25,270 bases of DNA from a virus (taxonomy: Duplodnaviria; Heunggongvirae; Uroviricota; Caudoviricetes), in IMG/VR virus record IMGVR_UViG_2713897042_000013, positions 1 to 25,270 of that record; one strand, 5' to 3'. The notes under the pieces were generated by a model. That model ran no database searches. It saw nothing but the letters and a program-made list of their open reading frames with translations, and was not told where the DNA came from. A program made the translations under genes and the position numbers. Shown here in pieces: positions 4,930 to 6,436 of the stretch. The first letter of the stretch is position 1. Every line of letters begins with the position of its first letter.

Positions 4930-5229
4930 TCACATCACCCTGAATCCGTTGCATTTACGTAAGAAATCGCAGATATAGCCCTTCATTTTTTCATGCCAAT
5001 CTCGATCATTCCCATTGCACCAACCATCAGGTGGAGTCCAGTTTTCTATCAGATCAGCCATTTTCTTTGCTTTCGCCGGAGTAGCTGTTGCGGTATCGCA
5101 GTAATGACGAGTGTCAACCAACGAATCCATACCATCGATATCAAGTACGCAAAACCATGTGTGATTCGGAATTCCTACAGATGGTATTTGTTGCCCACGT
5201 CGACGTTTATCAATAAGATATACACTCAC
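4930..5229 (-). CDS. Hypothetical phage protein (99 aa)
   Basis: GTG start preceded by AAGGAGG; start overlaps the upstream stop (GTGA). Confidence 0.65.
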   Translation of the reverse strand: MSVYLIDKRRRGQQIPSVGIPNHTWFCVLDIDGMDSLVDTRHYCDTATATPAKAKKMADLIENWTPPDGWCNGNDRDWHEKMKGYICDFLRKCNGFRVM

Positions 5230-5681
5230 TGGTTGCCTCCTTTGCGAAGCTCAGCGGCGAAGGCTACTGCGTGATCATGATGTTCAAGTGTGTATGCACA
5301 CTCCGCAAACATCTCCACGCCCTGCGCCCGTACTTCAGCCAGAAAAGCATCGGTGGCTGGGGTTTTGATTTCGTTAAGCGCATCACTGAATCCACCACGC
5401 TCCATACCTAGCTCTGCTTCGTAATCGGCATCGAATGCAGCGTCTTTGCAGAACTTCTTCATCCCCGCACTCTCCGCTGCCAGCGCCACGCACTTGGCCT
5501 CAAGGTTATCAATCGTGATTCCAGCAGAACGACACTCCCGCAACGCCGTTTCCAGTTTTGATTCAAGTTCACCGAACTTACGGACAAGATATTCAGCGTT
5601 TGTTTCGTTAACATTTAAATCACTTGGGATGCATTTGCCTTTCAGAAAACCATCCATCTCAATTAGTGTCATTTGTTTCAT
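5226..5681 (-). CDS. Hypothetical phage protein (151 aa from ATG at 5681; alternative GTG at 5699)
   Basis: ORF from the track. The ATG at 5681 overlaps the stop of the 54-aa ORF upstream (ATGA). Confidence 0.7.
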
Positions 5682-5842
5682 TTTTTTCCACTCCGCCACA
5701 TCGCATTCAGATATTTGTTTTGATTTACTGATGGAAAAGAATTTCTCTTAAGCAATTCCTCTCTCGATGGCATTGGCTTTACGCGTTGGCGAATAATCAT
5801 TTCTGCCGGAAGAATGCCGGGATTGTATGCAAGTCCTCTCAT
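5678..5842 (-). CDS. Small hypothetical protein (54 aa)
   Basis: Hand-translated: [58 protein letters not shown] overlaps at both ends. Confidence 0.45.
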
Positions 5843-6129
5843 GATTTACTCTCCACGAACTGGTCAACAGCCATGCTAAGTGATACACCTAAAGTCTCGA
5901 TATGCTGCTGAATATCCTGTAGCGTCTGCGCCTGAGATAACAGGATTTCACGGTTGCATAACTCTTTGACCAGATGCTCAAACTTGCTGTAATAACCGAT
6001 ACGACTTAGTGTTTCTTTCCCTGCATTCTCGCCTTCTTTTATAATTCCTCTTTCGCTAAGAATCAGATCGTGTTTGGTTCCGGTAATAACGTATTTTCCG
6101 AGGTCGATGTTTAGCTTCATTGTTTTCAT
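5839..6129 (-). CDS. Hypothetical phage protein (96 aa)
   Basis: Start taken at ATG 6129 with GAGGAA 8 nt upstream (the track's longer ORF runs into the upstream gene). Translation begins [17 protein letters not shown]…. Confidence 0.65.
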
Positions 6130-6139
6130 TGTTAATTCC

Positions 6140-6436
6140 TCAGTCATTACTGATAGCGCCATAGCGTGAGCGGTAATTACGCAGGCGCGGGTCGATATAT
6201 TCAGGGAAGTGGGTATATGTGGCTTTGCGGAATGGTCGGATTGATGTCTGGTAAATTCGCTCGCGTTCTTCTTTCTCTGCAAGCCATATACAATGGCGAA
6301 ATTCCTTTTCCTCTTTCGTTTCCTGCGGTAGCGACATTATCCGGTCGTAGTTTTTCCTGAATTTATCCAGCACCTCCGATACGGAATTGCCGGAACAGCG
6401 GCGCGCGTCATCCGCACCATACAGAGGCGCTGGCAT
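6140..6436 (-). CDS. Hypothetical phage protein (98 aa)
   Basis: ORF from the track; AAGGA ribosome-binding site 7 nt upstream of the ATG. Confidence 0.7.
   Translation of the reverse strand: MPAPLYGADDARRCSGNSVSEVLDKFRKNYDRIMSLPQETKEEKEFRHCIWLAEKEERERIYQTSIRPFRKATYTHFPEYIDPRLRNYRSRYGAISND

Follow-up and report, generated by a model that had tools for sequence, protein, structure and literature searches.

A translationally coupled early-left gene chain of a lambdoid Escherichia coli prophage is predicted to encode Abc2, an EaE/Oad2-family protein and two small accessory proteins

Which functions are encoded by a chain of small, overlapping early genes that lies beside the recombination gene erf in a lambdoid prophage, and are these genes directed together against the host nuclease RecBCD? 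The question is raised by a 25,270-nucleotide (nt) stretch of viral DNA (Caudoviricetes; positions 1 to 25,270 of the IMG/VR virus record IMGVR_UViG_2713897042_000013), which was analyzed as a whole and is called the window here. Four consecutive leftward open reading frames (ORF1 to ORF4) at 5226-6436 had been described in an original prediction, which recognized none of them and, from the position of abc1 and abc2 near erf in phage P22, considered nuclease inhibitors or other host-takeover functions plausible. Sequence and structure comparisons make it very likely that the four genes lie toward the promoter-distal end of the pL operon in an E. coli lambdoid prophage of the HK446/HK97/Sf6 type with a lambda integrase, in which ORF1 would be Abc2, ORF4 a member of the EaE/Oad2 family, and ORF2 and ORF3 swappable accessory genes. 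In the order of transcription, the four genes are the following:

6140-6436, minus strand: ORF1, abc2 by sequence (98 amino acids (aa), ATG start)
5839-6129, minus strand: ORF2, DUF5405 family gene (96 aa, ATG start)
5678-5842, minus strand: ORF3, DUF2737 family gene (54 aa)
5226-5681, minus strand: ORF4, EaE/Oad2-family gene by sequence (151 aa from ATG, isoelectric point (pI) 4.8)

The layout first described, with four leftward ORFs of 98, 96, 54 and 151 aa, a 10-nt gap, ATGA overlaps and Shine-Dalgarno sites, was borne out when coordinates, junctions and motifs were recomputed. ORF1 and ORF2 are separated by a gap of 10 nt, while the ORF2/ORF3 and ORF3/ORF4 junctions are ATGA overlaps (-4), and Shine-Dalgarno-like motifs (TAAGGA, GAGGA, GGAGAG and GGAG) are located 5-9 nt ahead of all four starts. 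Since each of the four products has a match in a curated family of proteins (expect values (E) from 1e-5 to 1e-61), the ORFs are real genes and not chance reading frames; the family search gave no match for ORFs on the opposite strand. In a longer form of ORF2 with a TTG start, the match to the DUF5405 family begins no earlier than residue 52, in favor of the ATG start and a protein of 96 aa. For ORF4, an alternative GTG start 18 nt upstream of the ATG would give a protein of 157 aa. None of the four products was matched by NCBIfam or PADLOC, and no Rfam families were found in 4000-9500.

Contrary to the earlier statement that none of the genes is recognizable, ORF1 matched Abc2 (PF11043), ORF2 DUF5405, ORF3 DUF2737 and ORF4 the EaE/Oad2 family. 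The clearest assignment is that of ORF1, whose residues 1-98 aligned with positions 1-97 of the 97-position PF11043 profile (Anti-RecBCD_p2) at E 4e-61 and 203.6 bits (cut-off 25). It also matched phrog_656 ('abc2 anti-RecBCD', E 2e-56) and the chain 8b1t_A of P22 Abc2 solved on RecBCD (8B1T/8B1U, E 2e-55). ORF1 is 91.8% identical to P22 Abc2. Over residues 3-66, the stretch modelled on RecC, 61 of 64 positions are identical, and ORF1 has retained the PpiB site, Pro68. The two proteins have the same length, and their genes come after erf at the same place of the pL operon; the differences are nine substitutions and one extra residue, mostly in the disordered C-terminal third. Judged from these alignments, ORF1 is Abc2 itself.

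In vitro, the P22 protein leaves both the helicase and the nuclease of RecBCD almost unchanged, and host PpiB co-purifies with it unless Pro68 is mutated; the role proposed is to prevent RecA loading and/or to favor Erf loading (Wilkinson et al., eLife 2022, PMC9836394). The mechanism is also treated in a later study (Genome Res 2025, PMC12315714). Since the solved complex was made with E. coli RecBCD (PMC9836394) and the closest DNA matches of the window are E. coli phages and genomes, this mechanism may be carried over to ORF1, and the natural inference from 92% identity to a protein studied on E. coli RecBCD is that ORF1 would act as P22 Abc2 does. The RecBCD countermeasure encoded here would then be the hijacking of the enzyme by Abc2, unlike that of lambda, where Gam blocks the DNA-binding site of RecBCD.

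The argument from position in P22 held for one gene, abc2, which corresponds to ORF1, but abc1 is absent and ORF2 to ORF4 are not homologues of RecBCD inhibitors. In tblastn against the window, P22 Abc1 gave a best E of 1 and lambda Gam an E of 0.47, and no counterpart of P22 Abc1, P22 Arf or lambda Gam, Exo or Bet was found in it. ORF2 to ORF4 were also negative against P22 Abc1, P22 Arf and lambda Gam by BLASTP and hhalign, with hhalign probabilities below 1% (at most 0.3% for Gam). The homology search against Abc1, Abc2 and Gam-like inhibitors that had been proposed as a check was thus positive for Abc2 (ORF1) and negative for Abc1 and Gam by tblastn, BLASTP and hhalign. In P22, abc1 lies between erf and abc2, whereas an SSB-like gene (SSB, single-stranded DNA-binding protein) occupies this slot in the window. 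Either this gene or ORF2 was considered as a replacement of Abc1 by homology, and both were rejected as no similarity was found. P22 Abc1 is reported to trigger a P4-encoded cell-death locus (Silas et al., bioRxiv 10.1101/2023.04.06.535777).

ORF3 encodes a small basic protein (6.3 kDa, pI 11) whose residues 1-52 aligned with positions 1-52 of the 53-position PF10930 profile (DUF2737) at E 2.6e-31 and 107.7 bits (cut-off 25), and which matched phrog_1117 at E 4e-38. Its identity is 75% to P22 orf56, 96% to HK75 gp29, which is annotated as similar to HK97 gp38 (DUF2737 family), and 100% to HK620 hkaI. The genes orf56 of P22, gp38 of HK97 and hkaI of HK620 have the same position after abc2, with the difference that DUF5405 is inserted before DUF2737 here. 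The PDB sequence search with ORF3 gave no match even at E 10.

The neighborhood of DUF2737 was sampled in 80 IMG/VR loci encoding a near-identical Abc2. The gene follows abc2 by 10 nt in 52 of these loci and comes after a DUF5405 insert in 19; it is internally deleted in 8, and one locus is cut short. Since the gene is deleted in these loci, DUF2737 is dispensable in some lineages. Only the first codons (MRGLA) of the deleted gene are kept at L083 4298-4400 and in seven similar IMG/VR loci. In the phage collection, full-length matches were obtained in 223 records for DUF2737 and in 225 for Abc2, while about 480 further records, mostly of virulent Guernseyvirinae (Jerseyvirus, Kagunavirus), carry the DUF2737 core P-x-P-[ST]-REEL-KRNSF-x5-NKYLN, which is located in strings of small genes in Guernseyvirinae. 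No abc2 annotation lay within 3.5 kb of the core in the two Guernseyvirinae records inspected. DUF2737 as an obligate partner of Abc2 was rejected, given its deletion in some lineages and its presence in virulent phages. In temperate phages of the lambdoid and P22-like kinds, DUF2737 and abc2 are strongly but not obligatorily linked; evidently, the DUF2737 protein works without Abc2. The best guess for its role is that of a small basic protein that would bind a host component. DUF2737 and an ORF4-like protein were also seen joined in a fusion, 222 aa long, in contig P0172.

ORF2 scored 25.4 bits with PF17399 (DUF5405; cut-off 21.6), its sole Pfam match, and E 1.6e-32 with phrog_154. It is 96% identical to Sf6 gp24 (gene 24) and about 34% to orf83 of P2-like phages, and its homologue in HK446 is gp29. 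The name of phrog_154 and of several RefSeq records, including those of Sf6 gp24 and HK446 gp29, is 'replication initiation protein', which would make ORF2 a replication initiator. This reading is scarcely credible, as ORF2 has just 96 aa and matches DUF5405 alone in Pfam, no solved replication protein was found among its fold matches, and most related phages can do without the DUF5405 gene. Moreover, orf83 adjoins the true initiator gene A in P2-like phages, so the label looks transferred; it is probably a name that spread from this adjacent gene. DUF5405 is found in P2-like early operons as well as in virulent phages of about 70 kb. In P2-like phages, its gene stands beside the replication gene A and a TraR/DksA-like gene and not beside abc2. 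The predicted fold of ORF2 is that of other DUF5405 members, a small sheet-plus-helical-hairpin, with a Foldseek template modelling (TM) score of 0.85 to a DUF5405 model in BFVD, and the PDB sequence search with ORF2 was empty even at E 10.

The insertion of DUF5405 between abc2 and DUF2737 is optional, 19 of the 80 loci having it, and both ORF2 and ORF3 are independently swappable small accessory genes. Neither protein appears to resemble an enzyme or a replication initiator, and the best guess is that they would be small binders of host or defense proteins. A full-text literature search for DUF2737, DUF5405 and DUF7739, the last being the family of the gene that follows ORF4, returned one incidental mention, and searches for hkaI, hkaH and hkaJ returned nothing relevant. 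Peptide-word searches of the supplements of Silas et al. (bioRxiv 10.1101/2023.04.06.535777) placed no homologue of ORF2 to ORF4 among the 200 accessory genes screened there.

ORF4 is aligned end to end with HK446 gp27 (Oad2) at 55% identity (175 columns, E 3e-60); it is 57% identical to HK75 gp28, and matched P22 EaE at E 2e-8 and phrog_614 at E 3e-56. Pfam and NCBIfam gave no match, and the PDB sequence search was empty even at E 10. ORF4 has the same slot after DUF2737 as HK446 gp27 and HK75 gp28, a slot that is missing from Sf6 and from E. coli FDAARGOS_1250. These matches make ORF4 a member of the EaE/Oad2 family, of which more than 7,600 clusters were counted at 90% identity.

The relative in HK446 has been characterized. 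A genomic library yielded Oad2 as a gene rescuing ΔrecB cells from P2 OLD (bioRxiv 10.64898/2026.07.10.737580, 10 July 2026). According to the same preprint, Oad2 abolishes OLD defense and binds OLD directly in a stable complex. It keeps the OLD tetramer from cleaving tRNA, but does not stop cleavage by dimer mutants that are constitutively active, and the HK75 homologue, 54% identical to Oad2, gives no protection from OLD (bioRxiv 10.64898/2026.07.10.737580). As an inhibitor of the OLD defense nuclease and not of RecBCD, Oad2 lends support, for ORF4, to the suggestion that host-takeover functions are plausible in this chain, and ORF4 is by family a candidate counter-defense protein. Anti-OLD activity cannot be inferred from family membership, since the 54%-identical HK75 homologue is inactive, and activity against P2 OLD may well be absent from the ORF4 allele.

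The comparison of ORF4 with Oad2 locates where the two proteins diverge. Their N-terminal 70 residues are nearly identical, a 14-residue motif is common to both and both end in LRKGGNQ, while the residues just before this ending are FAAE in ORF4 and FSDQ in HK446 Oad2, and the latter is 24 residues longer. The gp33 OLD trigger is found in the same operon in both phages. The variable segments of ORF4 also differ from those of HK75 gp28. Among 119 close homologues that share the first variable segment of ORF4, the second occurs in 31 versions of about ten unrelated types, 20-49 residues long. In ORF4 and its homologues P0089-P0208, the hypervariable segment was seen to lie between the conserved anchors …AEVRAQGV and FAAxLRKGGNQ.

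The location of ORF4 between the recombination genes and xis is equivalent to the exo-xis region of lambda (orf60a, orf63, orf61, ea22, ea8.5), where a string of small genes expressed early from pL fills the stretch from the recombination genes to xis/int, follows the same logic and modulates the host; no sequence relationship to the lambda exo-xis proteins or to lambda Gam was found. ORF4 might accordingly be conceived not as an anti-defense protein but as a lysis-lysogeny modulator of the kind of lambda Ea22, which favors lysogeny (PMC7093339, PMC10834534), all the more as relatives of Oad2 are sometimes fused to EaD/Ea22 proteins (bioRxiv 10.64898/2026.07.10.737580). This is unlikely: similarity to lambda Ea22 was not significant (BLASTP E 0.078, hhalign probability 0.4%), no NCBIfam ead/Ea22 model matched, and related prophages carry the ead/Ea22-like gene separately.

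With the four products assigned, the second part of the question can be addressed, that is, whether all four genes are one dedicated anti-RecBCD module in which ORF2 to ORF4 give Abc1-, Arf- or Gam-like functions. The genes do adjoin erf and abc2 and are translationally coupled, DUF2737 follows abc2 in about 89% of the sampled loci and also in P22, and the full-length matches of DUF2737 and Abc2 in the phage collection are similar in number (223 and 225 records). Such a module is nevertheless very improbable, considering that ORF2 to ORF4 lack similarity to Abc1, Arf and Gam in the BLASTP, tblastn and hhalign searches, that the DUF5405 and ORF4 slots are optional, that DUF2737 is deleted in 8 of the 80 loci keeping abc2 and present in virulent phages without a neighboring abc2, and that the characterized relative of ORF4 acts on OLD and not on RecBCD. 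The reading preferred here, with Abc2 followed by swappable accessory genes and an EaE/Oad2-family gene, places a single homologue of a RecBCD-directed protein among the four genes.

The window is a mosaic lambdoid prophage whose integrase is of the lambda type, and lambda-like DNA (96.6% identity) makes up about 39% of the window. At the DNA level, the chain region shares 96-97% identity with phages HK446 and PhiR12, and the same gene order is found in HK446, HK75, Sf6 and P22. Of 5426 complete E. coli genomes, 2867 contain parts of the region, whereas 4200-7500 was not found as one match covering at least 80% in any of the 5426.

The coupled chain extends past the borders first given for it, on both sides. 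Its neighbors, from the promoter onward, are listed below:

9247-9275, minus strand: pL-like promoter upstream of the N-like gene (consensus match only)
8785-9129: N-like gene
7538-7708, minus strand: gp33 (56 aa, acidic; 56 of 56 residues identical to HK75_33, i.e., HK75 Gp33)
6843-7448, minus strand: erf, single-strand annealing protein (201 aa; PF04404 E 3.5e-44; phrog_155)
6460-6843, minus strand: SSB-like gene between erf and abc2 (127 aa; phrog_44 E 2e-28)
4930-5229, minus strand: DUF7739 gene (99 aa, Sf6 gene 22 family; PF24881 E 3e-20; phrog_1239)
4275-4928, minus strand: EaA-like gene (217 aa) with a dATP/dGTP pyrophosphohydrolase domain and DUF551 (PF04447 E 8e-42; PF04448 E 4e-14)

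The resulting order, gp33 - erf - SSB-like - abc2 - DUF5405 - DUF2737 - EaE/Oad2-like - DUF7739 - EaA-like, is tightly packed. On the erf side, erf and the SSB-like gene overlap by 1 nt, and a gap of 23 nt separates the latter from abc2; on the other side, the junction of ORF4 and the DUF7739 gene is a GTGA overlap, and the EaA-like gene, 71% identical to part of P22 EaA, begins 1 nt after the DUF7739 gene. The SSB-like gene, in the erf-abc2 slot held by abc1 in P22 and by gp31 in HK446, matched TIGR00621 weakly (E 0.0015), and its product had no Pfam match. The C-terminus of this product is DDSIPF, resembling the tip of E. coli SSB. In the E. coli protein, the C-terminal tip recruits host partners. 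A second 56-aa ORF, which overlaps gp33, was noted at 7459-7629 (phrog_1723).

No promoter-like or terminator-like sites were found on the minus strand within 5226-6436, while a pL-like site is located at 9275-9247 and two terminator-like hairpins at 7965-7908. Because of this arrangement, the chain is read as the promoter-distal stretch of an early-left operon under N antitermination. It had been placed upstream of the recombination module; in the direction of transcription from the pL-like promoter near 9275-9247, it lies downstream instead.

The presence of gp33 in this operon bears on how ORF4 would act. P2 OLD is an ABC-ATPase/TOPRIM tRNase that fires when RecBCD is disabled or on Gp33, and the Gp33 proteins of HK75 and HK446 are sufficient to trigger this abortive-infection nuclease, which led to the suggestion that Gp33 is a new RecBCD manipulator (bioRxiv 10.64898/2026.07.10.737580). 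ORF4 is read as a counter-defense protein because its relative Oad2 blocks OLD, OLD fires on loss of RecBCD or on Gp33, and Gp33 is encoded here. In the mechanism that may be proposed, RecBCD would be manipulated by Abc2, and OLD-type immunity would be set off by the disabled RecBCD or by Gp33, encoded by the same prophage. ORF4 would then cover the cost of carrying RecBCD-manipulating genes, with a specificity set by its two cassette-like variable segments. As a tentative extension, which is possible but rather doubtful, ORF4 could be a specificity variant of Oad2 against another OLD-type ABC-ATPase/TOPRIM nuclease, or against another sensor of RecBCD tampering, set off by Gp33 or Abc2; cassette swaps between the 14-residue motif and the LRKGGNQ anchors would diversify the inhibitor, and the DUF2737 peptide might be a hitherto overlooked factor that targets the host early.

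Several points weigh against the overall assignment of the chain. All the evidence consists of sequence and structure comparison, and the results on Oad2 and Gp33 come from one unreviewed preprint. ORF4 is about as far from Oad2 (55% identity) as is the HK75 homologue that fails to inhibit OLD, and both of its variable cassettes (about residues 72-105 and 121-140) are unrelated to those of the active Oad2. The AlphaFold2 model of ORF4, built with 51 homologues, was all-helical with low confidence (predicted local distance difference test, pLDDT, 51) and was not used. For ORF2, the fold search gave no informative solved relative, and the roles suggested for ORF2 and ORF3 are guesses.

Other genes of the window were noted on the way. 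A 227-aa protein is encoded at 8100-8783 (minus strand), between the N-like gene and cIII, and matched Nmad5 ('nucleotide modification associated domain 5') over its full length (E 3e-70). A homologue of PerC-family transcriptional activators lies at 3463-3777 (minus strand), near the int/xis end (PF06069 E 8.5e-15). Two overlapping genes at 9501-11005 (minus strand) occupy the slot that rexAB has in lambda, directly downstream of a cI-like repressor (11092-11805). One of them encodes a 192-aa protein in which DUF6932 was recognized (E 2e-26) and which also matched PDC-M63A, a candidate system of PADLOC (E 2e-10), and the other a 309-aa protein of phrog_18731 without a Pfam match; they may be a prophage-encoded defense pair.

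The locus is a known and annotated arrangement, all four genes being in catalogued families, and it is nothing new by itself; at about 96% identity to sequenced phages, its discovery value is small. It is of interest as a clean example of how much one coupled lambdoid operon can hold: Abc2, which hijacks RecBCD; Gp33, a trigger of the immunity that guards RecBCD; and an Oad2-family protein that likely inhibits this immunity. It draws attention to DUF2737 and DUF5405, two widespread small phage proteins, and to a cassette-variable inhibitor family whose rules of specificity can be mapped. In this way, the prophage neatly illustrates how a RecBCD manipulator, an immunity trigger and a probable inhibitor travel together in a hotspot close to the recombination genes.

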